A stretch of 64,000 nt of DNA from Patescibacteria group bacterium. GTDB lineage: Bacteria > Patescibacteriota > Patescibacteriia > Patescibacteriales > UBA12075. Both the position numbers and the translations under genes were made by a program. Location: the NCBI GenBank assembly GCA_018897195.1, contig JAHILH010000005.1:128745-192744 (forward strand). The letters run 5' to 3'. Below the pieces are notes generated by a model. The model ran no database searches. It had not been told where the DNA came from and saw nothing but the letters and a program-made list of their open reading frames with translations. Shown one piece after another: positions 2,326 to 31,805 of this stretch (the first letter of the stretch is position 1; every line of letters starts with the position of its first letter).

Positions 2326-2880
2326 TTAATTTTCTTCCCCAAACACTTCCGCCTCAAATACTTCAATCACCGCCTCCGAATCTTTATAACAATCCTTTCC
2401 TAGTCCAGCTTTCTGTTTACACAATTCTTCCAAAAATTTCTTCCGACCCCAACCCGTTTCCGTGGCTACTTGGGGCAAAAACAGACCGGCGCAAGTGCCT
2501 TTACGAATTATCACGCCATGTTTACCTAGTTCAATCTTTTTCCAATCAGCAATTCTGGTCGGCGCAGATAAAACACTAACTTCATAATGCAACTCTACTA
2601 ACTCATCGACTGCCACTGGATCAAAACGTGAATCTTCGCAACAAGCCGCCATCGCCATCTCGCTCACAACACGCCAAAGCGGTTTTTCTGAGGCAATAAT
2701 TTGACCGATGCAGCCGCGCAATTTTCCATTTTTTGACAATGTTACAAAAGCCCCCTTCCATTCCTTCAAACCTTCATCGGTGATTTTAAATTCAGCCACC
2801 TTACCATCACGCACCAAGCTCTCAGCCGACGCGCGCGCAATTCGTAATAATTCTTTTTTTTGAGTTTTATTTAATTTCAT
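2326..2880 (-). CDS. AMMECR1 domain protein
   Basis: 184 aa; GCIGQI...CEDSRFDPV...HGVIIRKG...GLFLPQVA pattern typical of AMMECR1. Confidence 0.85.
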   Translation of the reverse strand: MKLNKTQKKELLRIARASAESLVRDGKVAEFKITDEGLKEWKGAFVTLSKNGKLRGCIGQIIASEKPLWRVVSEMAMAACCEDSRFDPVAVDELVELHYEVSVLSAPTRIADWKKIELGKHGVIIRKGTCAGLFLPQVATETGWGRKKFLEELCKQKAGLGKDCYKDSEAVIEVFEAEVFGEEN

Positions 2881-2944: not shown

Positions 2945-3436
2945 TTAAATTTGTTCCAAAATTTTCAATTCAAATGTCCCAGTCTCTATTTCCCAATAAG
3001 CAAAGGTGGCCATAAAGAAGTTACCCCCCAGTGTTCCCGGATTTATATATTGAGTATTGCCTTTTTTTTGAATATGCGGTCGATGCGTGTGCCCGTAAAA
3101 AACTAAGTTACAAGTGCACATTTCTTCCGTTTGACTAAAAAATTCCGGCTCATGGCACATGCCAATATTAAATCCCTCCAATACAAACTTACCAAAACGA
3201 CCATGGTCGGTATAATTTTTATAATATTCCAATTCCTCTTCATAATAAATATCCGCATTACCTCGGATAATGTGGATATTATTTTTGAAACCTTCTGATA
3301 AATATTTTATTGTTTCACTATTAGCTACATCACCACAACAAATAAGCTGATCGATGGTATTGTCACGGCACCACTGCAAACATTTTTCGAGATTAGGGAT
3401 ATTGTCGTGAATGTCGGAGATGATGACTATTTTCAT
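2945..3436 (-). CDS. YfcE/MJ0936-type metallophosphoesterase
   Basis: MKIVIISDIHDN, CCGDV, GNADI, YGHTH motifs; start set at ATG 3436 (the upstream TTG extension reads through a palindrome). Confidence 0.85.
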   Translation of the reverse strand: MKIVIISDIHDNIPNLEKCLQWCRDNTIDQLICCGDVANSETIKYLSEGFKNNIHIIRGNADIYYEEELEYYKNYTDHGRFGKFVLEGFNIGMCHEPEFFSQTEEMCTCNLVFYGHTHRPHIQKKGNTQYINPGTLGGNFFMATFAYWEIETGTFELKILEQI

Positions 3437-3493
3437 GTGGCATATAACCCGAATCCGCCGTGGCGGATCCAAATATTACAAATAATTATGTGA

Positions 3494-4063
3494 CTATTTT
3501 CTAAGATTAACTTCGTAGGCAACTTGCTCAATTTTGCGCAGATTACCTTTTGCTTGATCATATTTTGTTCGCAAATAACCAGTCATGTCAAATTCTACCA
3601 ATTCGGCCATAATGTCATTAATAATATTTTTAATCTTATCGACTTCTTTAAAATTACCCTTAGCCGCCTCATTTACTGCACGTCGCACCAGCTCACCAGT
3701 GGTGTCACAAATGCCGCCTAAGTAGCTATCATATTTTATACTTAATCCCTTGATCTTGTCAATCTTATCACCGGAAATAATCAAGTAGTACATTTTGGCC
3801 TCCACATACTCCTCCATCCCCGCCTTATATGATCCTTCCTCTAGTAATCTAGTAAAGCTAAACTTTTTTTCCAAATTCGCCAAGATTTTTTCAATCTCAG
3901 TTAAGCTCTCATTAGCTTTCTTCATATCACCACGATGCATTGAAAAAATTGCTCGCTTTGAATCATGTAAAACCACATTGGCTAAAGCAATAATTTGTCT
4001 GCGCTGACTATTCTGATCATCATATTCTTTTTTTAACTTCTGAATGAATTTCTTGTTTATCAT
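3494..4063 (-). CDS. Translin-family-like protein (COG2178-like)
   Basis: 189 aa helical protein; YKAGMEEYVEA and ICDTTGELVRRAV resemble translin/TRAX family motifs (from memory). Confidence 0.55.
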   Translation of the reverse strand: MINKKFIQKLKKEYDDQNSQRRQIIALANVVLHDSKRAIFSMHRGDMKKANESLTEIEKILANLEKKFSFTRLLEEGSYKAGMEEYVEAKMYYLIISGDKIDKIKGLSIKYDSYLGGICDTTGELVRRAVNEAAKGNFKEVDKIKNIINDIMAELVEFDMTGYLRTKYDQAKGNLRKIEQVAYEVNLRK

Positions 4064-4087: not shown

Positions 4088-7000
4088 TTATCGTGCCACA
4101 CGCAAAACCTCCTCTACCGTTGTCTCGCCTTCTAGCGCCTTAAGAATACCATCTTGAATCATCAAGACCGTTCCATTTTTAACAGCGTTCTCTTCAATGT
4201 CAGCATTAGTCACATTATCAATTTGAATAATTTTTTGCATTTCGTCATCCATGCTAATCGCCTCATAAATACCAATTCTACCCTTATAGCCAATCCCACT
4301 ACACTCAGGACAGCCCTCACCTTTATAAAATTTCAACTCAGTCGGAATCTGAATATTTAAATCCTTATTAATACCAGCCAAAATATTCTGAACTTCTTTC
4401 AAAAGAACTTCATCTAACTCAATTTCTTTTTTGCATTTTTGACAAACCCTGCGCACTAATCTTTGACCAATGGAACACTCCATGGAGCTGGCTAAGGCTT
4501 GGCGATCCATGCCCAAGCCGACAAAACGAGCAATCGCACCCGCGGCACTATTGGCATGGATCGTGGACAAAACTAAATGTCCAGTCAAGCTGGCCTCAAT
4601 AGCCACCTTGGCTGTTTCTGCATCCCTGATTTCTCCCACCATGATAATATTTGGATTTTGGCGCATAAATGACCGAATTGCCATCCCAAAAGTATAACCA
4701 CCAGCACTATCAATTTGAGTCTGCAAAATGCCATTCAAGTGATATTCAATCGGATCTTCAATGGTCATAATTTTCACATCAGGACTATTTAATTTATTCA
4801 AAGCACTATATAATGTTGTTGTCTTACCAGATCCAGTCGGACCAGTGGTGATAACAATGCCCTTACTCTTGTGAATTGCCTTATTAATCTTTTCTAATGA
4901 ATATGGCCTAATACCCAAATCTTCCATTTTTAATTCAGCTGCTTGGCTAGTCAACATTCTAATTACAACTGTTTCACCATAGGCACCAGAAATTATCGAC
5001 AAACGACAGTCAATATTTTTTGAATTGAACGTAATACTAAAACGTCCATCGATGGTTGGTTGCTTAATATTTGTAGCAATACCAGCTGTTGATTTTATTT
5101 TAGATAAAATTTGAATATAATTCTCCTTTGTTACATCAGAAACATCGGACAAAATACCATCAATTCTAAAACGCACCTTAACGCCGTTTTCTATCGGCTC
5201 GATATGAATATCACCTGCCTCCACCTTTATCGCTAAAGCTAAAATGTAATTTAACATCTCGCCAGAAGAGGAGTTTTTGATAATACCCCCTGACTTTAGA
5301 ATATCGCTAGACACTCCGCCCATTTTTATCAATGTCTCGTCTGACAAAACAAAGCCCCGTCCAAGTGTCTTGGATACAACTACGTCATACAAGGCATCAA
5401 CATATTCAAACTTGCCAATCACACGATAAACTTCTTCCAAACTAGTAACACCGTCCATACACTTCAAAACTCCGTCTTGCAACATCGTCACCATTCCATT
5501 CTCAATCGCCTGATACAATATCTTAAACGCCGGCGCCCCATTATCAGCCAGTTCCTTAACATCATCACTCATAGTCAAGATTTCATAAATACCTATTCGC
5601 CCCTTATAGCCTGTCCCGCCACATTTCTCACAACCAGCTCCCGCCTTAAAAATCTTTGGCAATTCGTTGGGAATATTCACTTCCGCTTTCGGAGATATTA
5701 CCGCTAATATTTTTTGTACCAATTGCTTCTCTTCCGCCGTTAAGACATGTTCAACTTTGCAATTATTACAGACCTTTCTAATCAATCTTTGTCCGATTAA
5801 AGCATTAATAGATGGCGTCAAAAAATAAGATTTAACTCCCATGTCAATCAAGCGTGGAATTACACCGGCTGCGTCATTAGTGTGCAAGGTCGACAGAACC
5901 AAATGCCCGGTCAAGCTCGCCTGAATGGCAATCTCAGCTGTTTCTAAATCACGAATTTCTCCAACCATCACCACATCCGGATCTTGACGCAAAACCGAAC
6001 GAAGACCATTTGCAAAAGTATAACCCTTCTTTTCATCAATCTGACTTTGGTTAATACCCTTCAATTGATATTCAATCGGATTTTCCAAGGTAATAATCTT
6101 TGTATTCTCTGTATTTAAAGTATTTAAAATCGCGTACAAGGAAGTTGTCTTACCAGAGCCAGTCGGACCAGTAGTCAAAATCATTCCATTCGGCTTGACC
6201 ATTTCTTTTTTTAAAATTTCAAACTCACGCGCACGTAAGCCTAATTGCTCAAAACCAAGCGTAACTGAATCAGAAAACAACAAACGCATTACCACGCTCT
6301 CTCCATAAGACGTTGGCAAAAAAGAAGCACGTACGTCTATCTTTTTTTCATTCAAAAAAATCGTAAACCGTCCATCCTGTGGTTTGTTTTCAATATTTAT
6401 TTTCACCTTTGCCAATAACTTCATTCTAGAAATTATCTTTTTCCATTTATCCTTATCAATCACCGCTGCATCATGCAACACCCCGTCAATTCTATAACGA
6501 ATCACAATGCCTTTTTCTTCTGCCTCAATGTGAATATCACTGGAGTTCATTTTTATCGAAGCTGCTAAAATTAAAGTAACAACATCAGAAATATTTACTT
6601 CATTGATTTTTTTATCTAAACTTTTATAATCATTTATCTCTTGTTCGAATTTTTCTACATCCGCACCCTTAATTTCTACACCATTAACTAATTTTTTTAT
6701 TTTAGGCAAGCTGGCATATTGCTTTAAAGCATAAATCAAACTATTATCAGAAATCAAATAAATCGCCCCTTTACTATATTTTTCTGCACAGATTTCTTCC
6801 ATTTTTTTAAGTACTACCGGATTGTCAGGATTGGTTGCAGCAATGCGGATATTTTCACCATCATAAAAAAAACAAACTATCTTTTCTTGGATAGCTATTT
6901 TCTCGTCAATCAGGCTCAAGGCCTCGGCACTGATTGGAAAACCGAAGAGATTAATGTAGGGCACGCCAAGACCGACGGCCATCTGTTCCGCGACTCTTTC

Positions 7001-7111
7001 TTTTTCTTTTATTTTCATCCCTTTTTGTTTCTTAGCAAAGACACCCTCTGTGCTATCTTCGTCAACAAAACCACCGCTCGATGATGAAATTAAATCTTCA
7101 ATTGATTGCAT
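4088..7111 (-). CDS. pilB: Type IV pilus/T2SS assembly ATPase PilB/GspE with two complete ATPase modules fused in tandem
   Basis: 1007 aa; T2SSE N-domain, then two modules each with Walker A GPTGSGKTT (nt ~6149-6175 and ~4823-4849), Walker B/Asp box (DPDVVMVGEIRD / NPNIIMVGEIRD), His box (TGHLVLST) and tetracysteine CxxC...CxxC...GYKGRIGIYE. Confidence 0.9.
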   Translation of the reverse strand: MQSIEDLISSSSGGFVDEDSTEGVFAKKQKGMKIKEKERVAEQMAVGLGVPYINLFGFPISAEALSLIDEKIAIQEKIVCFFYDGENIRIAATNPDNPVVLKKMEEICAEKYSKGAIYLISDNSLIYALKQYASLPKIKKLVNGVEIKGADVEKFEQEINDYKSLDKKINEVNISDVVTLILAASIKMNSSDIHIEAEEKGIVIRYRIDGVLHDAAVIDKDKWKKIISRMKLLAKVKINIENKPQDGRFTIFLNEKKIDVRASFLPTSYGESVVMRLLFSDSVTLGFEQLGLRAREFEILKKEMVKPNGMILTTGPTGSGKTTSLYAILNTLNTENTKIITLENPIEYQLKGINQSQIDEKKGYTFANGLRSVLRQDPDVVMVGEIRDLETAEIAIQASLTGHLVLSTLHTNDAAGVIPRLIDMGVKSYFLTPSINALIGQRLIRKVCNNCKVEHVLTAEEKQLVQKILAVISPKAEVNIPNELPKIFKAGAGCEKCGGTGYKGRIGIYEILTMSDDVKELADNGAPAFKILYQAIENGMVTMLQDGVLKCMDGVTSLEEVYRVIGKFEYVDALYDVVVSKTLGRGFVLSDETLIKMGGVSSDILKSGGIIKNSSSGEMLNYILALAIKVEAGDIHIEPIENGVKVRFRIDGILSDVSDVTKENYIQILSKIKSTAGIATNIKQPTIDGRFSITFNSKNIDCRLSIISGAYGETVVIRMLTSQAAELKMEDLGIRPYSLEKINKAIHKSKGIVITTGPTGSGKTTTLYSALNKLNSPDVKIMTIEDPIEYHLNGILQTQIDSAGGYTFGMAIRSFMRQNPNIIMVGEIRDAETAKVAIEASLTGHLVLSTIHANSAAGAIARFVGLGMDRQALASSMECSIGQRLVRRVCQKCKKEIELDEVLLKEVQNILAGINKDLNIQIPTELKFYKGEGCPECSGIGYKGRIGIYEAISMDDEMQKIIQIDNVTNADIEENAVKNGTVLMIQDGILKALEGETTVEEVLRVAR

Positions 7112-7128: not shown

Positions 7129-8106
7129 TTATCTCGTAAACATTCTCACTAATTTACTCTTTGCACCCTTGCCAATTAATTCGACGAACAAAGAAGTCCA
7201 AGCAGAAATCTGAAAAGTGGCCACTAATGAGCCGGTCACAATTAAAAAAGCAAAGAAGAAAATAATGCCCACACCGATAATAAACAAGAACATACCAGTC
7301 ATAGACAATCCTGAAGCCAAGAAAGCCAACAAGGCGAAAGGGGTCGCAAAAACTAAAACAACTATAATAAATAATAGCGCAATCACAATGTTCAAAAAAT
7401 ACAAGATGAACGCCATTTCTAAGCTAATCAACCAATTTTTTCTAAAAAGCTCCCAGCCAGATTTAAAGGCATTAACGAATTCAACATTATTAATTACGGA
7501 ATAACCAATACTATATTTCACGATAAACGAAAAAGACATTGCAACCGGAATAAACAATAAAATAACAAAAGTATAAACAATAAGAGACATGGTTGATCCC
7601 AAATTATTACCCATAACCACAATAAAAGAAATTATCGCCAATGAAATTATCGTAATAAGCTTGGAGACAAAATTAAAGCCAAAAACTGGCCAAAACTTTT
7701 TCATTCCACTCTCTAATGCCTCCCTAAAAGAAGTCTGCTTATTATCAATTTTTAATAAAGTATTATTAACCAAGGCAGCCTGCGAAACATTAACCAGCCA
7801 AATTACAAACGCAAACAAGGCTAAGAAAATAACTAGCACCAAAAGGGCCACAATCACTGAAATCGGCTGTGTGATTAACAAATTACCAAAATTGCGTAAT
7901 CCCTGCCAGGAAAAGACACCAGTCTGAGCAATCATCCTAAAGCCAGAAAAAAAGTCATTGTTAAAATTCCCAGATAAAGCTCGGAATAAAATTTCATACT
8001 CACCACCATTGCCCAATAAAGCTGCAAACAACCCAAAAAACCAAAGATACTTACTCTTCCAGGTAACATCCAGGGCTTGTTTTATAATTCCTCGATATAG
8101 TTGCAT
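7129..8106 (-). CDS. Polytopic membrane protein, family unknown
   Basis: About 7-8 hydrophobic segments; start set at ATG 8106 (longer ORF starts at TTG). Confidence 0.6.
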   Translation of the reverse strand: MQLYRGIIKQALDVTWKSKYLWFFGLFAALLGNGGEYEILFRALSGNFNNDFFSGFRMIAQTGVFSWQGLRNFGNLLITQPISVIVALLVLVIFLALFAFVIWLVNVSQAALVNNTLLKIDNKQTSFREALESGMKKFWPVFGFNFVSKLITIISLAIISFIVVMGNNLGSTMSLIVYTFVILLFIPVAMSFSFIVKYSIGYSVINNVEFVNAFKSGWELFRKNWLISLEMAFILYFLNIVIALLFIIVVLVFATPFALLAFLASGLSMTGMFLFIIGVGIIFFFAFLIVTGSLVATFQISAWTSLFVELIGKGAKSKLVRMFTR

Positions 8107-8289
8107 AAATTTAAATTTGTAGAATTTGAATTTTTTAATAATCCACTTGCTCGCCAAGTGCGAGAATACTACAAAATAATAATGAAGTTAATTTATACAA
8201 TTATTATAACATATTATTTTATAAAAGCCAAAGACTTTTTGAGTATTTAATTTAGCTATAACAGATTCCGTAACTGCAAAAAACAAAAA

Positions 8290-8334: not shown

Positions 8335-9738
8335 CTATTTTAGGGCCTTTTTATACAATTCTATATACCTCTGGGCTGAATGATTCCAAGAAAAATCAGT
8401 TGTCATGCCAGTCCGTTGAATTTTTTTCCACTCATCACTATTGGAATATAAGGCTATTGCTCTTTTTAATGCATCTTTCAGGCCTTTTATCGTCATTGTC
8501 TCAAAAGAAAAGCCATTCATCTGACACCTTACATGCCTTGCCTCACATTCAAATACCGTATCCACCAAGCCACCGACTGCGCGCACGACGGGCACAGTCC
8601 CATAGCGCATCGCAATCATTTGGCCTAAACCACATGGCTCAAAGCGTGACGGCATCAAAAATATGTCCGAACCGGCATAAATAAGCTGGGCTAATTTTAT
8701 ATCAAATTTATTTTGTACACTAACCTTTTGTGGATATTGTTTTGCTAATTTTTTCAATAAGTCTTCGTATTTTTTATCACCAGTTCCTAAAAAAACAAAC
8801 TGACAATCAAGATTGATAATTTCCTCCGTAATTAATCCCAACCCCTTTTGTTCCACAAATCTTGAAATAAGCCCAACAAGGGGCTTGCTCGACATCTCAA
8901 GTCCAACCAATTCTTGAAGCTTTGTTTTGTTTATTTTCTTACCAGTCAAATTATCACTTGAATATTTTTTTGCAATCAATTTATCCTTGGCTGGGTTAAA
9001 GAAATCCATATCAATGCCGTTTAAAATACCAGATACTTTATTTTTATTTTTTAGCAAAAGTTTTTCAAGCCCAGCTCCGAATAGCTTTCCAAAAATTTCT
9101 TTGGAATATGTCGGACTCACCGTGTTTACTTGATTGGCATAGACAATACCCTTTTCCATAAAATTTAAAGTCTTCTCCCCTACATCACGATCCAGTCCAA
9201 TTAATTCTAAAACTTTTTGACTTGTCTTGCCTTGATATTGTAAATTATGAATAGTTAAAACTGTTTTGATGTTTTTAAAATATTCATAATTAGAGGATTT
9301 TAACAAAAGCGGTATCATGGAAGTGTGATAATCATGACAATGAATAATATCAGGCTGGAATTTTAAAACTGGCAAGACATACAGACTAGCCTGTGAGAAA
9401 AATAGATATCTCTCTGCATTGTCGTCGTGGATATAAACATCTTTTTTCCCAAAATATTTTGAGTACTCAATAAAATAAACCTTAACACTTTTAAAACTAG
9501 TTTCCCAGACATTAACTTTAACCATCTTGTCCGCAAAAGGCACGGCAATATTGGCAAATTTTTTTTGGATATTATATTTCTCCTTGTCAATTAAACCATA
9601 AAGAGGCATGACGATGCGCACATCGCAATTATTTTTTTTCAAAGCCATTGGCAAGCTTCCCAAAACATCTGCCAGACCACCTACTTTAGCAAATGGCGCC
9701 ATTTCCGCGGTCACCATTAAAATTTTTAATTTTTTCAT
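8335..9738 (-). CDS. glgA: Glycogen/starch synthase (GT5), paralogue 1
   Basis: 467 aa; N-terminal EMAPFAKVGGLADV motif, GT-B fold C-terminal PSRFEPCGL. Confidence 0.9.
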   Translation of the reverse strand: MKKLKILMVTAEMAPFAKVGGLADVLGSLPMALKKNNCDVRIVMPLYGLIDKEKYNIQKKFANIAVPFADKMVKVNVWETSFKSVKVYFIEYSKYFGKKDVYIHDDNAERYLFFSQASLYVLPVLKFQPDIIHCHDYHTSMIPLLLKSSNYEYFKNIKTVLTIHNLQYQGKTSQKVLELIGLDRDVGEKTLNFMEKGIVYANQVNTVSPTYSKEIFGKLFGAGLEKLLLKNKNKVSGILNGIDMDFFNPAKDKLIAKKYSSDNLTGKKINKTKLQELVGLEMSSKPLVGLISRFVEQKGLGLITEEIINLDCQFVFLGTGDKKYEDLLKKLAKQYPQKVSVQNKFDIKLAQLIYAGSDIFLMPSRFEPCGLGQMIAMRYGTVPVVRAVGGLVDTVFECEARHVRCQMNGFSFETMTIKGLKDALKRAIALYSNSDEWKKIQRTGMTTDFSWNHSAQRYIELYKKALK

Positions 9739-9794
9739 AAAAGTAAATAACTAGGCGACCAGCTAACTGGGCAACCAGAATAATAAGTTAATTA

Positions 9795-10364
9795 TTATTG
9801 CTCCCCAATCCAATGTAAAATGTCTTGCACTAATTTATCATCGGGCAGGGTATTTGTTTCCACCACCAATGATGGCAGTCGAGACTCCTTAACAGCTTTT
9901 ATATATTTGTGTTGCTGTTCGATATACCAAGTGGCACTATGTAGAATATTTTTATAATTAGGATAAATATTCAAACGATCCTGAATTCTTTTTTCCAAAA
10001 TATTTTCATCCTCCGGAAATTTGATTAAAATTATTTTAAAATCTAAATTTTGCAAACGATCTTCCACCAGTGAATAATCCAGCTCTAAATTATTATAAAT
10101 CTGATTATAAACCTTGTCGGAAATATGCAATTTTTCTACGATTAAATTTTTTTCTCGCAGTTCTTCAAAGATGCCCAAATAGCCATCAATCACTTTTTGG
10201 CCATGTCCTGTTCCGTAAACTCCAATGTCGCAATTAAACCAATGACAACCATCCAAAATATTTTTATTTTGGTTATACTTTGGCTCCAAGTGATTATAAA
10301 CCTGGCTCATCAACCAGCTCTTACCAGCCAATTCCGCGCCTTCAAATATTAAATGTTGAGCCAT
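9795..10364 (-). CDS. P-loop kinase-like protein (dNK/TMPK-like fold), function unknown
   Basis: Walker A-like FEGAELAGKS at N-terminus; start set at ATG 10364 to avoid overlap with upstream PHP gene. Confidence 0.5.
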   Translation of the reverse strand: MAQHLIFEGAELAGKSWLMSQVYNHLEPKYNQNKNILDGCHWFNCDIGVYGTGHGQKVIDGYLGIFEELREKNLIVEKLHISDKVYNQIYNNLELDYSLVEDRLQNLDFKIILIKFPEDENILEKRIQDRLNIYPNYKNILHSATWYIEQQHKYIKAVKESRLPSLVVETNTLPDDKLVQDILHWIGEQ

Positions 10365-10371
10365 ATACAAT

Positions 10372-11235
10372 TTATTCAATAATTTCATTAATTTTTCGTA
10401 ATTTAGATGAATCGATTTTAAAATAATTCCAAGAATTTTGAATTCTAAAATTATTACCTTCATGACGATGAAAATCAGAACCACCAGTTTCAATCAAATC
10501 AAACTCACGAGCCATTAATTGCGCGTACACTACCGCGCCATAACTATGATGTGGTGACAAAACCTCAATACCATCGATTCCCATGTGCTTCAAATCCTCC
10601 AATACTGGTTTTCGAAGTTGGTTGTACTTGCCCGGATGATTAAAAATAATTTTTCCCCCTAGATCTTTTTTCAATTTTAAAATTCTTTCCAAGCTGACAT
10701 AAGTATTATCCAAAAAACTAGTTTCCTTGTTGTAAAAATATTTATTAATAACTTCATTTTCACGTAAAATATTAGTTTGCATTTCCGCCATCACCCTGGC
10801 AGCATTTTCCGGAACGGCTAAAAAGCGGTCAACAACTTGATTGACGGGAATATAATGATTGAATTCGTCCAAGATATTGTCAACGTCAATTTCAAAACCC
10901 TTGACCACTAATTTATTCAAGGCTTCACGAACTTTTTTACGACGTCGCACCTGCGTATCGCGCAACAACTTGTGTAATTGCGGGTTACGATCATCAAAAT
11001 TATACCACAAAAAATTCAAGCGCTTATTTTTATGCTTCACGTACAACTCCAAACCCGTAATTGGCTTGATACCTTTAGCAATACAGGCAGCGCGAAATTC
11101 ATCCAAGCCACCGACGGTGTTATGATCAGTCAAAGCCGCCACCTTGATACCCTTGGAATGAATAAAATCCACCACCTCGGTTGGCGTTAAATATCCATCT
11201 GAATAAGTTGAATGAAGTTGTAAATCAATTAACAT
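10372..11235 (-). CDS. PHP-domain phosphoesterase
   Basis: DLQLHSTYSDG, ALTDHNTVGG, GGSDFH metal-binding motifs; start at ATG 11235. Confidence 0.8.
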   Translation of the reverse strand: MLIDLQLHSTYSDGYLTPTEVVDFIHSKGIKVAALTDHNTVGGLDEFRAACIAKGIKPITGLELYVKHKNKRLNFLWYNFDDRNPQLHKLLRDTQVRRRKKVREALNKLVVKGFEIDVDNILDEFNHYIPVNQVVDRFLAVPENAARVMAEMQTNILRENEVINKYFYNKETSFLDNTYVSLERILKLKKDLGGKIIFNHPGKYNQLRKPVLEDLKHMGIDGIEVLSPHHSYGAVVYAQLMAREFDLIETGGSDFHRHEGNNFRIQNSWNYFKIDSSKLRKINEIIE

Positions 11236-11334
11236 AAATTTTGGAATAACCAGGAAACAATAACCAATAATCACAAAGATCATTTATTAGTTATTGAAAT
11301 TTGGTTATTTATTATTAATAAAAAATTACACGAA

Positions 11335-12354
11335 TTATATATTTAAATTCTGTTTAACTCTATCAATTAGGATTTGCGCCCTCTCTGGATTAGGGTCGTA
11401 TTTCAATAAAAGAAAAGTGGCAGTTCTGATTGCCGTCCAGTTATAATAATTATCAATTCTTTTTTGTAAATCTTCTGTTAGTTTTACTCTGCTACTCTTG
11501 AAATAACTATCCAAAAATAAATTTTTAATTTTTTTCTGGTAACTCTCGTCGGCAATTTTTCGACTACACATATACTCTAGTTGTTGTGAAAATGTTCCTA
11601 AGTCTCTTGCGAAATCTGTAAACGATAAATCCGTAAAATCGATAACCCCAATTTTTCTCTTGCCCATTCTAATTACATTCTCTGGGTGTGCATCACCATG
11701 AACCAGCCATCGCTTACTTGTTGACGATAAAAACTCTTCTTCATTTTTTACAAAAATTGCATACGCCTTTACATAAAAATCATAATATTCCGGAAAATCA
11801 TTTTGTATTCTTTCTAGTGTATGCTCTACACCCGGATACACTGTCTTGATACGACTATTATCTTCGTTGAATCGTTGTTCATCAGAAACTTTTAATTTGT
11901 GCAAACGAGAGAACCACTTAGCTGTCTTGGGCACCATATCTTCAATGATTGGAAAATTACTCTCTCTAATAAAATAATATAAATTACTGCCTTTAACGCC
12001 GCGATAAAATGTGGCTCGAAAATAGTCGGAGTAATAAAGTGGATGCGGGATACTTAAATAGCCGTCGCCAAATCCATGACTCCATAGAAATTTCAAATTA
12101 TCATAAACATTCTTTCGAGGCTCAGTAGAATGAGCTGTACAAAAAATTGGTAGCTCACGGCGCTTACCTTTTTTATCAACAAACGTAGTTACAAACTCAA
12201 TCACCACATGATACGTAGTTTCCCAAATAAGCTTTTTCCAAGGTTTAATAACTACTTTTTTAATATCAACAAAATCTGGATAACTTGGCAAAATCCTTTT
12301 TTTTAAATATGTAATAACATATTCATCATCCAATAATTGATTTATTCTATTCAT
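11335..12354 (-). CDS. Aminoglycoside-phosphotransferase/choline-kinase-fold kinase (substrate unknown)
   Basis: 339 aa; catalytic HGDAHPENV and VIDFTD motifs of the APH/protein-kinase-like superfamily. Confidence 0.75.
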   Translation of the reverse strand: MNRINQLLDDEYVITYLKKRILPSYPDFVDIKKVVIKPWKKLIWETTYHVVIEFVTTFVDKKGKRRELPIFCTAHSTEPRKNVYDNLKFLWSHGFGDGYLSIPHPLYYSDYFRATFYRGVKGSNLYYFIRESNFPIIEDMVPKTAKWFSRLHKLKVSDEQRFNEDNSRIKTVYPGVEHTLERIQNDFPEYYDFYVKAYAIFVKNEEEFLSSTSKRWLVHGDAHPENVIRMGKRKIGVIDFTDLSFTDFARDLGTFSQQLEYMCSRKIADESYQKKIKNLFLDSYFKSSRVKLTEDLQKRIDNYYNWTAIRTATFLLLKYDPNPERAQILIDRVKQNLNI

Positions 12355-12369
12355 AACTTTCCAGTATCG

Positions 12370-12402
12370 CTATTCCCGCTCTTGCGGAAATACAGGTACC
12401 AC
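12370..12402 (+). repeat. Degenerate copy of repeat family 2
   Basis: ctattcccgctcttgcggaaatacaggtaccac versus gtcattcccgcgaaggcgggaatccaggcgccac. Confidence 0.5.
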
Positions 12403-12457
12403 GTCTTATATTTTAATTAAATTATTTTTTAAACAAAGAGCCCGACAAGAAGATTGA

Positions 12458-13630
12458 TTAATTTTTTTTCCAATGGTACTCCCAATGCTCATGCCAAATC
12501 ATATGTTTTATTTTTATATAAAGCTTTTCGCCTTTTATTTTCACACTCCTAGTTTCCACATTATGCAAGGATCTGATTGCGCGAATAAACTCATTAACAC
12601 CGCGCTCAACCTCATCCGGATTCCAGGAAACAGAGCCAAATAGTTTAAAGTCGCGTCCCGATGCCCACCAAAAAGTACAACTTGCCAAACCCAGAGTATA
12701 GTGTCTTTGCGCCCAAATAATATTTTCATCCTCAGCATTGTTCTCAATAACCTCATTAGCCAAATTGGCTAAATTCCAAAGCTGTTTGTGTATTTTATTT
12801 CTAGGATCTAGCCATAGTGCATAAGGCACGCTTTTGGTGATTTCTGACTCCGTTGACTCCCAATTACAAGGAGTGATTTTTACTTTCACCGCGGTTTTAT
12901 TCTGAAGATGCTCGGAAATTGTCAACGTTTTTAAATCAGCTCTTTTTAAGAGTTTTTCAAATTCAGCCGTATGGTCAAGATGTCGTAAGCCATAAAGCTC
13001 AGCATCCGTCGCCGTAATATATAACTCATGTTTATTTTTATAATCCAACAGTTTTTGGTCATTACCCAAAATATCCGGCACAAAGTTTTGCGACAAGCCC
13101 CTCATCCGAAACACAACCTTTAGTCCACTATTCTCATCTAGATAGTTTTTAGAAAAATCAACATTACCAAACTGTCCACCATGAGCGATTTCATCCACGA
13201 TAATCCACTCATAGCCCAAGCTCTTTACCAGTTTGGCTGCCTCCACACCATAAGCCATTTCTGGGAAAAAAAATCCCCTGGGCTTGAAGTCGGATCCAAA
13301 ATGCTTTTGCAAAATAATCTCATTTTCTTTAATTTGCCTTTCCACCTCCTCAAGCGGTATCAATGGCACTAAGGGATGATAGGCACAAGTCCCGGTGAGT
13401 TCTACCTGCCCTTTTTTAACTAATTTTTTAATTCTCCCAATTAAGTCACCCTCATTTAACGCCTCCCAGTGCGCGAACAAACAACCTTGAATATTTAAAG
13501 TAAACTTAGTTTGCGGATTTTCCTCCAAGGCTCTTACAATTCTCCGATAGCTCATGTCAGTTGCTTCTTGAATAAAATAAGCATCCTTGTTGGCTGGTTG
13601 ATATAAATGTAAAAAATTAATCCAAAGCAT
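12458..13630 (-). CDS. Glycoside hydrolase family 57-like alpha-glucan enzyme
   Basis: N-terminal NFLHLYQPAN, EMAYG region typical of GH57; start at ATG 13630. Confidence 0.7.
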   Translation of the reverse strand: MLWINFLHLYQPANKDAYFIQEATDMSYRRIVRALEENPQTKFTLNIQGCLFAHWEALNEGDLIGRIKKLVKKGQVELTGTCAYHPLVPLIPLEEVERQIKENEIILQKHFGSDFKPRGFFFPEMAYGVEAAKLVKSLGYEWIIVDEIAHGGQFGNVDFSKNYLDENSGLKVVFRMRGLSQNFVPDILGNDQKLLDYKNKHELYITATDAELYGLRHLDHTAEFEKLLKRADLKTLTISEHLQNKTAVKVKITPCNWESTESEITKSVPYALWLDPRNKIHKQLWNLANLANEVIENNAEDENIIWAQRHYTLGLASCTFWWASGRDFKLFGSVSWNPDEVERGVNEFIRAIRSLHNVETRSVKIKGEKLYIKIKHMIWHEHWEYHWKKN

Positions 13631-13719
13631 AACAGAATAATTAATAACCAAGTTACAATCACCATAGATTGAGCATCTTGATATTTATTAATATTATATA
13701 AATTTTCTTTAAGTAAATA

Positions 13720-15186
13720 TTATTTCAACTTCAACGCCTTCTTGTATAGCGCCAAATATTTCTTCGCTGGTATTTCCCAGCTATTTGATTCTTGCATACC
13801 GCGCACCACTAAATCCTTCCATGTTTCTTTGTCTTTATACACTTCTAGCGCCCTAATGATCGCTCCATACAATGAAAATTTATCAAACCCGGCAAAAGAA
13901 AAACCAGTTCCTCTTTTTACTGTTGGGTTAAAATTACGCACAGTATCATTCAGACCACCGATTTTGCGAACGATTGGCACACAGCCATAACGCATGGCGA
14001 TTAATTGGTTAATACCACAAGGCTCGTGATGTGACGGTAATAAGAAAAAATCTGAGCCAGCATAAACCAAGGTCTCATATTTCTGATTCTCCTCGTGCGA
14101 AGGTATCACGGCCAACTTGTTAGGGTATTTCTTGGCAACTTTTTGCAACTCCTTGATGTATTTTTTATCACCAGCGCCAATCACGATCATTTGCAAATTC
14201 AACTCCATTAATTGCCAGATAATTTTTAGTATTAATTCAAAGCCTTTCTGAAAGGTCACACGCGACGTTGAACAAATAAGTGGAACATCGGGATCAATTG
14301 TTAAGCCAAATTTTTCCTGAACAAATAATTTATTTTCTTTTTTGTTCTGACTTTTTTGATAATCATATTTCTTGTGTAATCCCGGATCTTCTAATGGGTT
14401 ATAAGCCTTATAATCAATACCGTTCACAATGCCAAACAGGCGATCTTCTCGATTTTTCAAAACACGATGCAAGTCCTGCCCAATATTCTTTGTAATTATC
14501 TCTTCCCGATATTGCTCACTTACCGTGTTTACCATATCAGCTGACAAAATTGCTCGCTTGGCAAAATTAAGATATTTAATATCCGGATCAGTGATATGGG
14601 GAATTTTTTTACGCCCAAAGTCCTTTTTCTCTATTGGCACCTCCCACCAATTCATTCCCAGCTGAAAAATTAAATTGTGAATTGTAAATATAGTCTTTGC
14701 GTTGCGCAATGTTTTGGAATAGCGGAAATCTGTTTTTAAATAAAATGGGATTAAACCAGTCTGCCAATCATGACAATGAACTATATCAGCTTCAAACTTT
14801 AACATTGAAATCAATTTTAAAGCCGCTACATCAAAAATCAAAAAACGCTCATTTTCACGATCAGACCCATATAGGGTTTTTTTCTTGGAAAAATATTTCG
14901 TATTCTCAATAAAATAAACTGGCAAATTTTTCAATAAATAACCCTTCCAATAATTAACAACCACTTCCTCTTTTGAATTTAAAGAAACTTTTACATTTTT
15001 ATAAAGTAGTTTTAAATCATATTTTTCTTTATCAATCACTTGTCCATACAAGGGTGTAATGCAAATAATCTCATGACCCAGCCTGGACAAGGCCTTGGGT
15101 AAACTACGAGCCACATCAGCCAAACCACCAGACTTAGAAAAAGGCGAAAGCTCTGCAGATATTGAAACTATTTTTAATTTATTCAT
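13720..15186 (-). CDS. glgA: Glycogen/starch synthase (GT5), paralogue 2
   Basis: 488 aa; ELSPFSKSGGLADV, PSHHEPCGI motifs. Confidence 0.9.
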   Translation of the reverse strand: MNKLKIVSISAELSPFSKSGGLADVARSLPKALSRLGHEIICITPLYGQVIDKEKYDLKLLYKNVKVSLNSKEEVVVNYWKGYLLKNLPVYFIENTKYFSKKKTLYGSDRENERFLIFDVAALKLISMLKFEADIVHCHDWQTGLIPFYLKTDFRYSKTLRNAKTIFTIHNLIFQLGMNWWEVPIEKKDFGRKKIPHITDPDIKYLNFAKRAILSADMVNTVSEQYREEIITKNIGQDLHRVLKNREDRLFGIVNGIDYKAYNPLEDPGLHKKYDYQKSQNKKENKLFVQEKFGLTIDPDVPLICSTSRVTFQKGFELILKIIWQLMELNLQMIVIGAGDKKYIKELQKVAKKYPNKLAVIPSHEENQKYETLVYAGSDFFLLPSHHEPCGINQLIAMRYGCVPIVRKIGGLNDTVRNFNPTVKRGTGFSFAGFDKFSLYGAIIRALEVYKDKETWKDLVVRGMQESNSWEIPAKKYLALYKKALKLK

Positions 15187-16592: not shown

Positions 16593-17660
16593 ATGGATGC
16601 CAAAAAAGCTTTATTTGAATATAAACAAAAAGTTGACGTCGAATTAGAAAGTTTTTTTCAAAAAGTCATTAGCGAAAATGAAAAAATCGACGTTGATATT
16701 GCCGGTGCAATGGATTATGTTCGACAAATCACCATGGCTGGCGGCAAACGTGCTCGAGCTGCTTTTATGTATTACGGATATTTAGCGGCGGGCGGCACAA
16801 GAAAAAAAGATATAACCAGAGCTAGTATTAGCACTGAGATCATGCATTCTTTTGCCCTAATCCATGACGACATTATTGACCAAGACAGTCTTCGTCATGG
16901 TATTACCACGACACATGTTCACTACAGCAAGATGGCTAAAAAATATTTCAAAAATAAAAATGCTGCACATTTTGGCGATTCTATGGCCATTGTCGTTGGT
17001 GACATGATAAATGCTCTAGGAAATCGTGTTTTATTAGAGGCAAATTTTTCACCACACCTAGTCGCTAAGGCAGCGCACCGTCTGCAAAACATAATTTTTA
17101 TAACCATTGTCGGTGAGACTGAAGATATTTTAATTGAAAATCGTGGTCAAGCAACTGAAAAAGAAATTTTGCAAATGTATAAAAATAAAACTGCCACATA
17201 CACCATTGAGGGTCCATTACACATAGGGGCAATTCTGGCTGGGGCTGATGAAAAATTTTTACTAGCCCTGAGCAACTACGCCATCCCCACGGGCATTGCT
17301 TTTCAAATTCAAGATGATGTTTTAGGAATCTTTGGAACAAAAAGTAAAACAGGAAAATCCATTGATTCGGACATTAGGCAAGGCAAACAAACTATTTTAG
17401 TGGTCAAGGCCCAAGAAAAAGCTAACAAAAAACAAAAAACTATTCTTAAAAATTGCCTAGGCAACAAGAATTTAACCGAAACCGATTTAGCTGATTTTAA
17501 ACAAGTAATCATTGATACTGGTTCATTGAAATACGCCCAGGCTATGGCAACGAAATTAATCACCAAGGCAAAGAATGAAATTACTAATCAAAAAATATCC
17601 AAAGAAGCTAAGGACTTCTTAATAAATATTGCCGACTACATGCTTAATCGTGAAATTTAA
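16593..17660 (+). CDS. Polyprenyl diphosphate synthase (trans-IPPS)
   Basis: Two Asp-rich motifs, LIHDDIIDQD and FQIQDDVLG. Confidence 0.88.
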   Translation: MDAKKALFEYKQKVDVELESFFQKVISENEKIDVDIAGAMDYVRQITMAGGKRARAAFMYYGYLAAGGTRKKDITRASISTEIMHSFALIHDDIIDQDSLRHGITTTHVHYSKMAKKYFKNKNAAHFGDSMAIVVGDMINALGNRVLLEANFSPHLVAKAAHRLQNIIFITIVGETEDILIENRGQATEKEILQMYKNKTATYTIEGPLHIGAILAGADEKFLLALSNYAIPTGIAFQIQDDVLGIFGTKSKTGKSIDSDIRQGKQTILVVKAQEKANKKQKTILKNCLGNKNLTETDLADFKQVIIDTGSLKYAQAMATKLITKAKNEITNQKISKEAKDFLINIADYMLNREI

Positions 17661-17753
17661 ATCATTTGTCATCACCGTATCTACGTGGTGCGCCTCTATA
17701 AATATAATAAACCAGGAACTTAAAATAACAATTATAAAATTAAATATAACTAC

Positions 17754-18467
17754 ATGACCAAGGAAAAATTAAACAGACCAAAACACCTCGTTATCATTCC
17801 CGACGGCAATCGTCGCTGGGCCAAGGCCCTGGGTCTCAAACCATGGGATGGACACGAAGCTGGGGCTAAGAATACCGAAAAACTCTTAACATACGCCTTG
17901 GAAAACAATATCGAATGCGTTACCATCTGGGGTTCTTCAATCGACAATATTAAAAAACGCCCCTTAATGGAAAAGAGGGCGCTCTTGAAAATTTACGAAG
18001 TCTATTTCAAAAAACTTTTAACTAACCCAGCCATCGAAGCCGAACAAGCCAAAGTCAGTTTTCTCGGCCGTTGGGAGACACAATTCCCCAACTCCCTTAA
18101 AACGACCATCTACGCCCTGATTGAAAAAACCAAAAATTACGACAAGAAAATGCTCAACTTTATGTTGGCATACAGTGGCGACGACGAAATGCTCGACACG
18201 ATTAATCGCATTCATGATAAATATAAAAAAGGTACCGAGATCACTGCCAAGATTTTAAAAGAAAGTCTCATGACCTCCCAACTACCACCAGTCGACTACA
18301 TGATCCGCACCGGTGGCGACGCCCACCTCAGTGCCGGCTTCATGATGTGGGATACGGCCAATGCTCAACTTTTTTTCGCTGACGAGAAATTCCCCGACTT
18401 TGATACTAAAAAACTTGCGGCCGCTCTAGTTGAATATAGCAATCGACAAAGACGTTTTGGAAAATAA
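17754..18467 (+). CDS. uppS: Undecaprenyl (cis-prenyl) diphosphate synthase
   Basis: HLVIIPDGNRRWA motif, IRTGG region; 237 aa. Confidence 0.92.
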   Translation: MTKEKLNRPKHLVIIPDGNRRWAKALGLKPWDGHEAGAKNTEKLLTYALENNIECVTIWGSSIDNIKKRPLMEKRALLKIYEVYFKKLLTNPAIEAEQAKVSFLGRWETQFPNSLKTTIYALIEKTKNYDKKMLNFMLAYSGDDEMLDTINRIHDKYKKGTEITAKILKESLMTSQLPPVDYMIRTGGDAHLSAGFMMWDTANAQLFFADEKFPDFDTKKLAAALVEYSNRQRRFGK

Positions 18468-18472
18468 CAAAA

Positions 18473-18496
18473 AGAGAGCCGACGCACTGGCTCTCT
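18473..18496. terminator. Bidirectional hairpin terminator between convergent uppS and NERD genes
   Basis: agagagcc-gacgcact-ggctctct flanked by A5 and T5. Confidence 0.65.
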
Positions 18497-18539
18497 TTTT
18501 GTTATTTATAAATAAATCTAATTACCCCTCAATCAGTAA

Positions 18540-19247
18540 TCACTCGACATTTCTACACCTCTTGATTGTCTTATATATCGCTCCTACTTCTTCTGGGCTA
18601 AGTTTCCCTTTTTGCTCTTGTAAAATTTTTGCTAAATATTTTGCCTGCACTACAAGGACATTGTCTCGCTCAATGCCTCTAAATAAATCATCAGAATAAA
18701 CTCCATGCACGCTCGATAGCACGACTGTTGCCTTCACCCAATAATTTTTCTTCAAATTTGCTGATAAAATTTTATTTATTTTTAAGGCTTTAATTTTAAT
18801 TTTTTTTAAAATTTTTTCATCAAACTGATTATTTTTCTTATAAATCTTGCCGCTCAAATTCCTAAATCTCCCTAAATAATTTTTTATTTCAATCGCAGAT
18901 ATTCCCGTTGGGCCGATAACAACTAAATCAATATCCCCATATTGATCAACCACTATATTTGATAATAATTTATAATTACTCGGCAATTCTGTTAACAACC
19001 TACGCGACACCTCATTTTCACCTCTCAGGCCAGACCGATAATTCCTAAAGCCTTTCACTGATTTCACAAACACCTTAAAAGAAAAATAAAAAAAGATAAA
19101 TAAATAGATAACTATCACCGATGGATCCACAATCAAATATTTCCTAATTAAATATAAGCCAAACAAAAAACTCACCAAAGTTAAAATCGGACTAAAAAAA
19201 TACATCACTATTTTTCGTTCAATATATTTGGAATTAATTTTTACCAT
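18540..19247 (-). CDS. Membrane-anchored NERD-domain protein
   Basis: Two N-terminal TM segments, then RGENEVSRRL...GDIDLVVIGPTGISAIEIKN, typical of NERD nuclease-related domains. Confidence 0.7.
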   Translation of the reverse strand: MVKINSKYIERKIVMYFFSPILTLVSFLFGLYLIRKYLIVDPSVIVIYLFIFFYFSFKVFVKSVKGFRNYRSGLRGENEVSRRLLTELPSNYKLLSNIVVDQYGDIDLVVIGPTGISAIEIKNYLGRFRNLSGKIYKKNNQFDEKILKKIKIKALKINKILSANLKKNYWVKATVVLSSVHGVYSDDLFRGIERDNVLVVQAKYLAKILQEQKGKLSPEEVGAIYKTIKRCRNVE

Positions 19248-19333
19248 AAAAAATTTAATTTTAATTATTTACTACTATTTTAGCATAATAAAAAAATATG
19301 CTATAATTAATACATTACAATTAATATTATCTT

Positions 19334-20407: not shown

Positions 20408-20569
20408 AATTGACCAATATTAGAAATATTATTTCCCAAAAACATAAATTGTTGTAAATTTCACGTAACCGCGTTAAGTTTACAACAATTTTTTGTTTTT
20501 ACGAAGAAAACTTGACATTTACCCCAAAATCATTACACTATATATATTAAATATTAAAAAAGGAAACCA

Positions 20570-20603
20570 CCTCACCCTGCCCTCTCCTGGCCAGGAGAGG
20601 GAG
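20570..20603 (+). repeat. GC-rich palindromic repeat, family 1, in topA 5' leader
   Basis: cctcaccctgccctctcctggccaggagagggag (perfect 11-bp palindrome arms). Confidence 0.9.
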
Positions 20604-20621
20604 TAATCTTAGTTAAAATAC

Positions 20622-22838: not shown

Positions 22839-22861
22839 AATTCATTAAAGCATAATAAAAA

Positions 22862-22882
22862 AGCGTTCACACTGTGAACGCT
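22862..22882. terminator. Hairpin terminator after topA
   Basis: agcgttcac-act-gtgaacgct with A6 upstream and a T-rich tail. Confidence 0.6.
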
Positions 22883-22894
22883 TTTATGTTTTAT

Positions 22895-25413: not shown

Positions 25414-25468
25414 TTTTTATTTTAAAATCAAAAAAATAGCTCCAATTAATCGGAACTATTTTTCTATG

Positions 25469-30752: not shown

Positions 30753-31805
30753 TTAAAATAGCTTAATCCTGTCCAATATTTCCGGATTATCCATATAACT
30801 TCTTGCCTCTTCCTTGCTAATCCGTTTTTCTACATAAAGTCGCTTAATATCTTGATCCAGGCTTACCATGCCTTCACGAGAGCTCGTTTCAATTACGGTG
30901 CGCATTTGGGTTACTTTGTTCTCACGGATGATATTAGAAATTGCCGGATTGTTAATCATTATTTCGCGAGCTGCTACGCGCCCTCCATCAATTTTTTGCA
31001 ACAACCTTTGTGAAACAACACCCACCAATGTCATTGACAACTGGGCCCTAATTTGATTTTGTTGATGAGGGGGGAATATGTCAATAATACGATCAACAGT
31101 TTGAGCTGCGTTGTAGGTATGCAGGGTTGCAAAAACCAAATGACCCGTTTCTGCCAAAGTGATTGCGGTCCCAATTGTTTCCAAGTCGCGCATTTCGCCC
31201 ACCATAATTACGTCCGGGTCTTGTCGCAAAGCATGACTAAGTCCTGAGCTAAAAGTTAACATATCGCGCCCTAACTGTCTTTGCATTATTAAAGACTTTT
31301 TCGCAAAAAATAAATATTCAATCGGATCTTCCAGGGTAATGATATTGCAAAATTTATTAAGATTAATATGATTCACCATCGAAGCCATAGTGGTTGACTT
31401 ACCACAACCAGTAGGACCAGTTACTAAAATAAGTCCCTGCTTAACATCTAATAAGCTGTACACCACTTTTGGCAAAGCCAAATCTTCCATGCTTGGAATA
31501 TTAGTACTAATAACCCTCGCGACCAAACCAACTCTATTTTTTTCAAAATGAAAATTTACTCTAAAGCGAAAATCGTCTTGGTCATAACTCACATCTAATT
31601 CTTTTTCCGCAATGAATTTCTTTTTTTCCTCTGGGGAAACTAGAGCATCCAACATATCATCCATCTCTTTTACTGTTATCTCTTTCAAACCTTCAATAAA
31701 TTTAAGCTCACCATTAATTCTGAGTGCGGGTGGCAAATTAACAAGAATGTGCAAATCCGAAGCCCCTTCATCACAGGCCTTTTTTAATAATTCTTTTATA
31801 GTCAT
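30753..31805 (-). CDS. pilT: Type IV pilus retraction ATPase PilT
   Basis: 350 aa; Walker A GPTGCGKST, DPDVIMVGEMRD, GHLVFATLHT. Confidence 0.92.
   Translation of the reverse strand: MTIKELLKKACDEGASDLHILVNLPPALRINGELKFIEGLKEITVKEMDDMLDALVSPEEKKKFIAEKELDVSYDQDDFRFRVNFHFEKNRVGLVARVISTNIPSMEDLALPKVVYSLLDVKQGLILVTGPTGCGKSTTMASMVNHINLNKFCNIITLEDPIEYLFFAKKSLIMQRQLGRDMLTFSSGLSHALRQDPDVIMVGEMRDLETIGTAITLAETGHLVFATLHTYNAAQTVDRIIDIFPPHQQNQIRAQLSMTLVGVVSQRLLQKIDGGRVAAREIMINNPAISNIIRENKVTQMRTVIETSSREGMVSLDQDIKRLYVEKRISKEEARSYMDNPEILDRIKLF

Follow-up and report, generated by a model that had tools for sequence, protein, structure and literature searches.

A 64,000-nucleotide (nt) window of contig JAHILH010000005.1 from a Patescibacteria group bacterium (positions 128,745 to 192,744 of the forward strand) was analyzed. 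One open reading frame (ORF) on its minus strand, 4088..7111, is a covalent tandem of two PilB/GspE-type motor modules behind a single N1 domain. Each module, A and B, consists of an N2 domain (N2D) and a C-terminal domain (CTD). Our overall explanation is that the gene is real, that its two modules are competent, that three chains form an A3B3 ring, and that this ring works with a co-encoded membrane protein; we give it a probability of about 0.6. Type IV pili, type II secretion, competence and archaella all depend on PilB/GspE/PilT-class motors. Whether ATP turnover in their hexamer follows a C2 rotary, C3 alternating or C6 scheme is debated, as is coupling to a dimeric versus a trimeric platform. 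The gene and its parts, with amino acid (aa) limits, are as follows.

4088..7111, minus strand: complete ORF encoding the double-motor ATPase of the PilB family, 1007 aa and a stop codon (protein P0001)
6710..6970, minus strand: N1 domain (T2SSE_N / Pfam MshEN), aa 48–134; Pfam E 3e-8; AlphaFold2 (AF2) predicted local distance difference test score (pLDDT) ~90
6587..6709, minus strand: N1-N2 linker, aa 135–175, with helices at 149–158 and 164–169 (linker analysis, AF2)
6251..6586, minus strand: module A N2D, aa 176–287, with DGR, DVR and VMR as equivalents of the Arg fingers of G. metallireducens PilB (GmPilB)
5417..6250, minus strand: module A CTD, aa 288–565, with Walker A (nt 6146–6175), Asp box ENPIEY, RQDPD-VVMVGE, His box and the four zinc-motif cysteines (Cys4)
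5261..5416, minus strand: inter-module linker, aa 566–617, with motif GKF(D/E)YIDxLYDxVxSxTxGRG and a predicted helix at 569–582
4928..5260, minus strand: module B N2D, aa 618–728, with Arg fingers DGR, DCR and VIR retained and LPT changed to ISG
4091..4927, minus strand: module B CTD, aa 729–1007, with Walker A (nt 4820–4849), Asp box EDPIEY, RQNPN-IIMVGE, His box and Cys4

The ORF starts with ATG and has no internal stops. Pfam places MshEN/T2SSE_N once and T2SSE twice (whole-protein E 1.8e-230), and the N1 domain is present once per chain, not once per motor module. Walker A sequences (GPTGSGKT, within TGPTGSGKTT) begin at aa 315 and 757. MVGEIRD follows at aa 382 in module A and 824 in module B, the His box TGHLVLST at 401 and 843, and GYKGR at 501 and 941. 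CxxC pairs are found at aa 448 (CNNC), 494 (CEKC), 890 (CQKC) and 934 (CPEC). These assignments bear out a first-pass annotation, made from the letters alone, which had described two full ATPase units after one T2SSE N-terminal domain in 1007 aa, each unit with a Walker A, Walker B/Asp box, His box and tetracysteine; every motif lies where it had been reported. Pairwise alignment of the halves, which the same annotation had proposed, was performed with module A as aa 141–572 and module B as aa 573–1007. Over 391 aa the two share 48% identity (E 1e-130), and the catalytic residues are kept in both. Self-comparison of the ORF at the DNA level returned short diverged repeats only (66 nt at 79%). 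Because the modules are 48% identical and the DNA repeats are short and diverged, the duplication is old and not a product of assembly.

The Pfam MshEN match covers the generic T2SSE_N fold. Binding of cyclic di-GMP (c-di-GMP) by the N1 domain was considered and rejected. MshE-type proteins carry a tandem c-di-GMP motif, RLGxx(L/V/I)(L/V/I)xxG(L/V/I)(L/V/I)xxxxLxxxLxxQ, at the N-terminus (PMC5013675), and direct reading of aa 1–140 found this motif absent.

Residue roles were taken from G. metallireducens PilB structures (McCallum et al.) and mapped via PDB alignments, and conservation was counted in 132 family members (120 close and 12 distant). The Walker A Lys is present in 120/120 sequences in module A and likewise in module B. 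The atypical Walker B reads VVMVGEIRDLE in A and IIMVGEIRDAE in B, and its Gly and catalytic Glu (GmPilB E395) are invariant in both. The Mg-coordinating Asp-box Glu (GmPilB E357; ENPIEY and EDPIEY) and the His-box equivalents of T411/H413/H420 (LTGHLVLSTLH and LTGHLVLSTIH) are each kept in 119 or more of 120 sequences, in A as in B. The pore Glu (GmPilB E400) is kept in 112/120 and 119/120 in the two modules. The N2D Arg fingers (GmPilB R257/R271/R286) correspond to R248/R261/R276 in A and R690/R703/R718 in B and are invariant or nearly so across the 132 sequences. Zinc tetracysteines are C448/C451/C494/C497 in A and C890/C893/C934/C937 in B; some of these cysteines are lost in a few distant members. 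Each module aligns to solved PilB/PilF/GspE chains over the full N2D and CTD (E 1e-102 for A, 4e-89 for B), scoring 285–347 bits against PilB/GspE/PilF chains versus 90–121 bits against solved PilT chains. From these residues, both modules are predicted to be catalytically competent, and neither appears degenerate. The fused gene is under purifying selection.

The modules have also diverged from each other. Identical residues conserved at 95% or more are shared by A and B at 93 positions, and 11 positions are fixed yet different between them, including RQDPD (A) versus RQNPN (B), LPT versus ISG, and P307 versus T749. Module B is the more diverged copy: its best PDB-chain score is 302 bits versus 347 bits for module A, and its mean identity to single-module PilBs is 0.405 versus 0.45. 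This divergence, together with the fixed changes beside Walker B (RQNPN for RQDPD, 120/120) and in the N2D (ISG for LPT), is what would be expected if one module were a degenerate pseudo-ATPase with a structural or regulatory role, like the alpha subunit of F1-ATPase, and a true case of this kind occurs in another tandem protein, P0135 (described below). However, the nucleotide-binding, Mg-binding and catalytic residues of either module show little or no variation in the 132 sequences, and RQNPN is a subclade trait, with RQDPD or mixed forms in module B of distant fused members. Mapping of these residues revealed degeneracy in neither module, and a pseudo-ATPase is very unlikely here.

The fusion is conserved in many uncultivated Parcubacteria, and more than 130 protein clusters have this architecture. 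An identical protein (P0001) occurs on 5 contigs from four sources (NCBI, JGI, ENA and Logan). At least 120 further 90%-identity clusters have the same architecture, with 60–85% identity, lengths of 992–1029 aa and ~100% coverage; the names on these clusters, where given, are mostly Parcubacteria/Patescibacteria. An exhaustive HMMER scan of 1.84 billion representatives (50% clustering) returned 13 full-length two-module representatives with identity down to 39%, all with two Walker A sequences and two His boxes. Next in the list below them were ordinary single-module PilBs of ~550 aa. The inter-module linker is fixed at 51–54 aa in the core family. Using its conserved motif, as defined from core-family sequences, 80 fused loci were pulled from metagenome contigs. 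Complete uninterrupted two-module ORFs are present at 63 loci (median 1014 codons stop to stop); at a further 14 the contig ends within an ORF that contains both modules, and contig ends also truncate the remaining 3. All 77 evaluable loci were checked for a stop or frameshift at the junction, and none has one.

These data bear on the possibility of an assembly or annotation artefact, in which adjacent pilB genes were merged through a missed stop or frameshift or a tandem repeat was collapsed. The window is metagenome-type sequence, and 2 of the 80 loci (L118 and L127) have an extra partial ORF resembling a local frameshift inside module A. Against an artefact stand the 48% identity of the modules with no long DNA repeat, the recurrence of the protein across sources and clusters at the same length and full coverage, the uninterrupted reading through the junction in 77/77 independent loci, and a linker with a conserved motif and fixed length. 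An artefact is refuted for practical purposes.

The protein was modeled with AF2 from a 132-sequence alignment (mean pLDDT 88.9). Each module superimposes on GmPilB with a template modeling (TM) score of 0.93. The predicted TM score (pTM) is 0.55 for the full length and 0.66 for a construct of CTD-A, linker and N2D-B, which leaves the inter-module geometry uncertain. No PDB chain spans more than one module of the fused protein.

In PilB rings, flexible linkers connect N2D(n):CTD(n+1) packing units (McCallum et al.). We infer that the most parsimonious assembly of the fused protein is an A3B3 pseudo-hexamer, the trimer of dimers that the first-pass annotation had suggested, in which three chains would form one ring with A and B alternating. 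A tandem duplicate would enter the ring through the pre-existing N2D(n):CTD(n+1) interfaces, and the 52-aa linker, partly derived from the N1-N2 linker, would tether neighboring modules. Joining needs existing interfaces only and so fits repeated independent origins of tandem PilBs, including a young duplicate with 72% identical modules. In a C2 rotary cycle opposite subunits act together, and in A3B3 each opposite pair would be one A and one B. Since every opposite pair would then be mixed, loss of either site would stall each step, which would account for the intact motifs of both sites here; P0135 illustrates the other outcome. An A3B3 ring would have N1 anchors at three positions only and N2D faces of two kinds, which would match a trimeric partner with alternating surfaces, and a three-fold partner is predicted. 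PulF/PilC has been modeled as a trimer with alternating Cyto1 and Cyto2, each bound to one N2D, and TadB/TadC provides a precedent as a trimer of heterodimers (PMC10790770). Specialization of alternate subunits, which the first-pass annotation had raised, is consistent with the 11 fixed A/B differences and the divergence of module B. The natural 1:1 order of non-identical modules would make alternate ring positions independently mutable, and the fused family would be a natural covalent-dimer experiment separating C2 and C3 firing models for all PilT/VirB11-class motors.

Six chains could instead place an A hexamer on top of a B hexamer, giving a double ring like those of ClpB, p97 and KaiC. 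Two nucleotide-binding modules per chain are present, and in other superfamilies P-loop modules that share a chain often stack. The linker, at 52 aa and with three predicted helices, has the necessary length, and AF2 shows no confident intramolecular A-B packing. Stacking would need a new ring-ring interface, yet tandem forms have at least four apparent origins including the young 72% one. A membrane platform would be out of reach of the second ring, yet module B retains the pore Glu and all motor motifs. PDB matches among PilT/VirB11-class ATPases include no stacked tandem chain. On this balance stacked rings are unlikely, and the alternating A3B3 ring is preferred.

Evolutionary origin was examined with a neighbor-joining tree of modules and single-module PilBs (100 bootstraps). 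Support is 100% for a clade of core-family A modules and 100% for a clade of core-family B modules; the two are exclusive sisters in 0%. Module B is equally distant from module A and from single-module PilBs. A linker of ~52 aa with the motif G(K/D)xxYI(D/E)xLY...RG is common to the core family and most of the distant members, and this points to a single ancient origin of that large fused group. In three other tandem proteins the two modules are each other's closest relatives: P0127 (bootstrap 100, module-to-module identity 72%), P0129 (98, 53%) and P0135 (97, 43%). The core linker motif is missing from P0127 (995 aa) and P0129 (994 aa; locus L084, 10001–12985), suggesting that they arose by younger independent duplications or underwent gene conversion. 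Tandem PilBs would thus have arisen at least four times, unless modules were homogenized in the lineages of P0127, P0129 and P0135. With its 72% identical modules, P0127 implies that a fresh tandem copy is viable on existing interfaces alone.

P0135 (loci L087, 10001–13144, and L088, 3275–6418) has a T2SSF-like (platform-protein) N-terminal domain followed by two T2SSE modules. Its host lies outside the Candidate Phyla Radiation (CPR), and its neighbors are sulfatases, ECF sigma and BatA/MoxR genes; the gene follows an ECF sigma/anti-sigma pair. In module 1, Walker A reads GPTGSGTTT, with Thr in place of Lys, and the Asp box reads PVQL, with Gln in place of Glu. The first module is a predicted pseudo-ATPase, an F1-like outcome of the same type of duplication. 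The core family, with both sites intact, and P0135, with one dead, are two natural end-points of it.

Two candidate split versions were examined, and neither is evidence that A and B occur as separately encoded subunits. P0203 falls within the A modules; it genuinely has one module and is most simply explained by secondary loss of module B. P0146 (L085) is a broken or chimeric copy of 540 aa on a contig with 1.4x coverage. In it, 72 unrelated N-terminal residues are joined to the CTD-A tail, linker and module B, and it probably reflects chimeric assembly or is what remains of a rearranged fused gene.

The closest solved relatives are PilB, PilF and GspE, represented by G. metallireducens PilB (5TSG/5TSH/6OLJ), T. 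thermophilus PilF (5IT5/5OIU) and V. cholerae GspE (1P9R/4KSR). They have the same N1 and N2D+CTD fold (TM 0.93), share Walker A, the atypical Walker B with catalytic Glu, Asp and His boxes, Arg fingers and tetracysteine, and are 40–45% identical to each module. They differ in having one motor per chain in a homohexamer, whereas here two diverged modules are joined with one N1 per two motors. PilT and PilU retraction ATPases are ~350 aa with an AIRNLIRE signature and no zinc motif, and match the pilT_fam model best; the fused modules both have Cys4 and score lower against PilT chains than against PilB/GspE/PilF chains. Long PilBs of the T. thermophilus PilF type (~800–900 aa), lengths that recur in the GTDB and representative matches, are also unusual in size. 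Their extra length is N-terminal to a single core, as in 913-aa 6f8l_G, where module A matches at residues 509–884 only.

Systems with two motors are known as separate genes. A. baylyi has two extension motors, PilB and TfpB (PMC8213720), and PilT and PilU are described as coordinating homohexameric ATPases (PMC6821130). Each of these systems likewise has two paralogous PilT/VirB11-class ATPases per organism. Unlike those pairs, the fused protein joins its modules covalently and forces 1:1 stoichiometry. The PilC/GspF platform and TadB/TadC (PMC10790770) follow the same pseudo-six-fold logic, with three copies of a duplicated unit. Those proteins are membrane platforms and not ATPases, and the membrane-protein neighbor of the fused gene is not homologous to PilC.

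Alternating hetero-hexameric P-loop rings include F1/V1 alpha3beta3, Pex1/Pex6 and Rvb1/Rvb2, and covalently linked hexamers have been engineered. One subunit type of F1 is non-catalytic, and the subunits of F1/V1, Pex1/Pex6 and Rvb1/Rvb2 are usually separate chains of other ATPase families. In all of these rings two subunit types alternate after duplication, as proposed for A3B3; unlike F1, the fused PilB has both sites intact.

Deposited sequences of the fused family have no annotation beyond 'GspE/PulE family protein' or 'PilB'. A search of the open-access full-text literature, including a 2024 PilB review, found no account of a PilB with tandem ATPases, and none is given in a CPR protein-family survey that discusses CPR pili (PMC6744442). 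The PDB holds no solved chain with the tandem PilB architecture.

The fused gene belongs to a string of minus-strand genes. Its neighbors in the window, and the PilT-family gene, are as follows.

7129..8157, minus strand: polytopic membrane protein, ~6–8 transmembrane segments, upstream of the fused gene with a 17-nt gap; conserved partner
3494..4063, minus strand: translin-family nuclease of the C3PO/TRAX type, starting 24 nt past the fused-gene stop; conserved partner
2945..3472, minus strand: YfcE-family metallophosphoesterase, frequent next gene of the cassette
2326..2880, minus strand: AMMECR1 / AmmeMemoRadiSam system protein A, occasional member of the same gene string
30753..31805, minus strand: PilT/PilU-family retraction ATPase with an AISNIIRE variant of the signature, 23.6 kb from the fused gene and unlinked to it

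Neighbors were counted for 68 distinct fused proteins from the linker-selected loci. A polytopic membrane protein is immediately upstream on the same strand in 39/53 evaluable loci, and a translin-family gene is immediately downstream on the same strand in 46/54. A YfcE-type metallophosphoesterase lies within 2.5 kb downstream on the same strand in 31/42. Membrane-protein homologs are also directly upstream of fused P0088, single-module sister P0134 and the two closest GTDB PilBs, L001 and L002; at single-module sister PilBs the gaps are 3–14 nt. Homolog coordinates are 5856–6881 in L092, 6673–7986 in L089, 349–1608 in L002 and 8975–9979 in L001. The distant fused subfamilies P0121, P0124 and P0129 sit in other contexts, with DHH, TsaE, PolA or RuvB genes, which marks the cassette as a core-family trait.

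The membrane-protein family is ~340 aa long and has motifs W..K.LWFFGLFA and NWL.SLEMA. The protein encoded at 7129..8157 has only sub-threshold matches to DUF7544 and no NCBIfam family. Its true start is probably Met18 (~nt 8106), where conservation begins, and the listed TTG at 8157 is probably wrong. The possibility that it is a divergent PilC was ruled out (hhalign probability 0.4%). The translin-like protein matches Pfam Translin (E 2e-20) and is closest to the archaeal C3PO nucleases NEQ131 and AfTRAX, with Nanoarchaeum NEQ131 (5JR9) as best PDB match (E 7e-12). Four metal-binding catalytic acidic residues (NeC3PO E82, E85, D117 and E121) and the substrate Arg, R124, are kept in 50/50 family neighbors. 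The downstream partner is therefore a predicted archaeal C3PO/TRAX-type nuclease in a bacterium. That the cassette is a known anti-phage system was considered and rejected, with no meaningful PADLOC matches.

Recurrent synteny at fused and sister PilBs of other Parcubacteria (L083, L093, L092, L089 and L084) includes the order PolA-TsaE-DHH-pilBB...RuvB at P0121 and P0124. The order FtsH-membrane protein-pilB...TsaE occurs at P0088 and P0134. Both probably represent conserved gene order and not a functional link. In the genome of P0012 a giant ORF with no Pfam match (17363–23024 in both L081 and L082) begins ~4 kb downstream of the fused gene, with a product of 3292 aa in one record and 2636 aa in the other.

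Genes of a canonical type IV pilus were sought around the fused gene. No T2SSF/PilC, PilM/N/O or prepilin genes were found in the 64-kb window, no pilC, pilT or pilin within ±8 kb of the fused gene, and no pilT, second pilB or prepilin-like ORF in 751 kb of fused-locus flanks. As a canonical control, 80 GTDB PilB loci were used, chosen among the matches listed from a full-length-alignment contig scan. Canonical CPR loci carry pilB-pilT-pilC. A PilC hidden Markov model (HMM) built from the canonical loci has 50 matches across the 80 canonical loci, versus 0 both in the window and across the 80 fused loci. L004 (Ca. Moraniibacteriota) is the only one of the 80 GTDB loci listed that has a two-module gene. 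Planctomycetota loci L013, L014, L041 and L057 have pilB-pilT-pilB clusters, with two separate PilB paralogs flanking pilT, and so offer an unfused comparison for the double motor.

The first-pass annotation had reported no adjacent pil genes and a PilT 24 kb away. The distance holds, the PilT-family gene being 23.6 kb off. The absence of adjacent pil genes also stands, but that account overlooked the conserved cassette, and the fused gene is no lone orphan. The PilT-family gene indicates that the genome has type IV pilus-type machinery, and because it stands alone, the pil genes are at least partly dispersed here.

Dispersal leaves room for the fused protein to be the organism's canonical type IV pilus extension motor, with pil genes scattered and the flanking genes simply syntenic housekeeping neighbors. 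Both modules are nearest to bona fide PilB/PilF/GspE and have the extension-ATPase zinc motif, the PilT-family gene is likewise solitary in the window, and type IV pilus components are widespread in CPR (PMC6744442). P0165, a single-module relative near the B clade, adjoins a pilin-like gene. The PilC HMM counts and the 751 kb of flanks without pilT, second pilB or prepilin ORF speak against a canonical pilus motor. So do the same-strand, tightly spaced membrane protein, which is also paired with single-module sister PilBs, and the nuclease gene in the conserved neighborhood. A canonical role with unlinked pil genes is a serious rival, and quite possible, though the neighborhood evidence favors partnership with the membrane protein.

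Under the favored explanation, the working partner of the fused motor would be the co-encoded non-PilC polytopic membrane protein, proposed because gene order is conserved. The C3PO-type nuclease and YfcE phosphodiesterase in the cassette suggest a nucleic-acid link, and motor output may be coupled to handling of single-stranded nucleic acid, for example in uptake or salvage. More specifically, and somewhat doubtfully, the cassette could encode an undescribed non-pilus machine of Parcubacteria in which the A3B3 motor and the membrane protein move single-stranded nucleic acid, at the membrane or across it, that is then processed by the C3PO nuclease and YfcE for nucleotide scavenging. If true, it would be a nucleotide-scavenging or uptake device in organisms unable to make nucleotides. 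The cassette points to a possible non-pilus use of PilB motors in CPR, where surface machines are thought central to an episymbiotic scavenging lifestyle.

Several observations weigh against the overall explanation. The membrane partner is not upstream in 14/53 loci, the distant fused subfamilies P0121, P0124 and P0129 are outside the cassette context, and conserved gene order can reflect descent alone. Module B may derive from internal duplication or from fusion of paralogs, A/B sisterhood being recovered in 0/100 replicates of the neighbor-joining tree. The A-B geometry of the predicted models is not fixed by AF2, given pTM values of 0.55 and 0.66.

Elsewhere in the window, 23S and 5S rRNA genes are at 26953–30182 (minus strand), with no adjacent 16S gene. 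The 23S match is 3040 nt versus a 2925-nt model and may include a small insertion. Three tRNA genes (25468–25743) lie 1.2–1.5 kb beyond the 5S gene, and the PilT-family gene starts ~570 nt past the 23S gene. Every 2-kb bin of 1–64000 has a negative GC skew (-0.04 to -0.30) and genes are mostly on the minus strand, which is consistent with a single replichore without origin or terminus. A radical-SAM+GNAT gene is found at 53217–54815, far from the AMMECR1 gene. A minus-strand cluster at 8335–15186 encodes two starch/glycogen-synthase-like GT5 proteins, a GH57 protein, a PHP-domain protein and an APH-like kinase, and resembles a storage locus of the glycogen type, here within a reduced genome.

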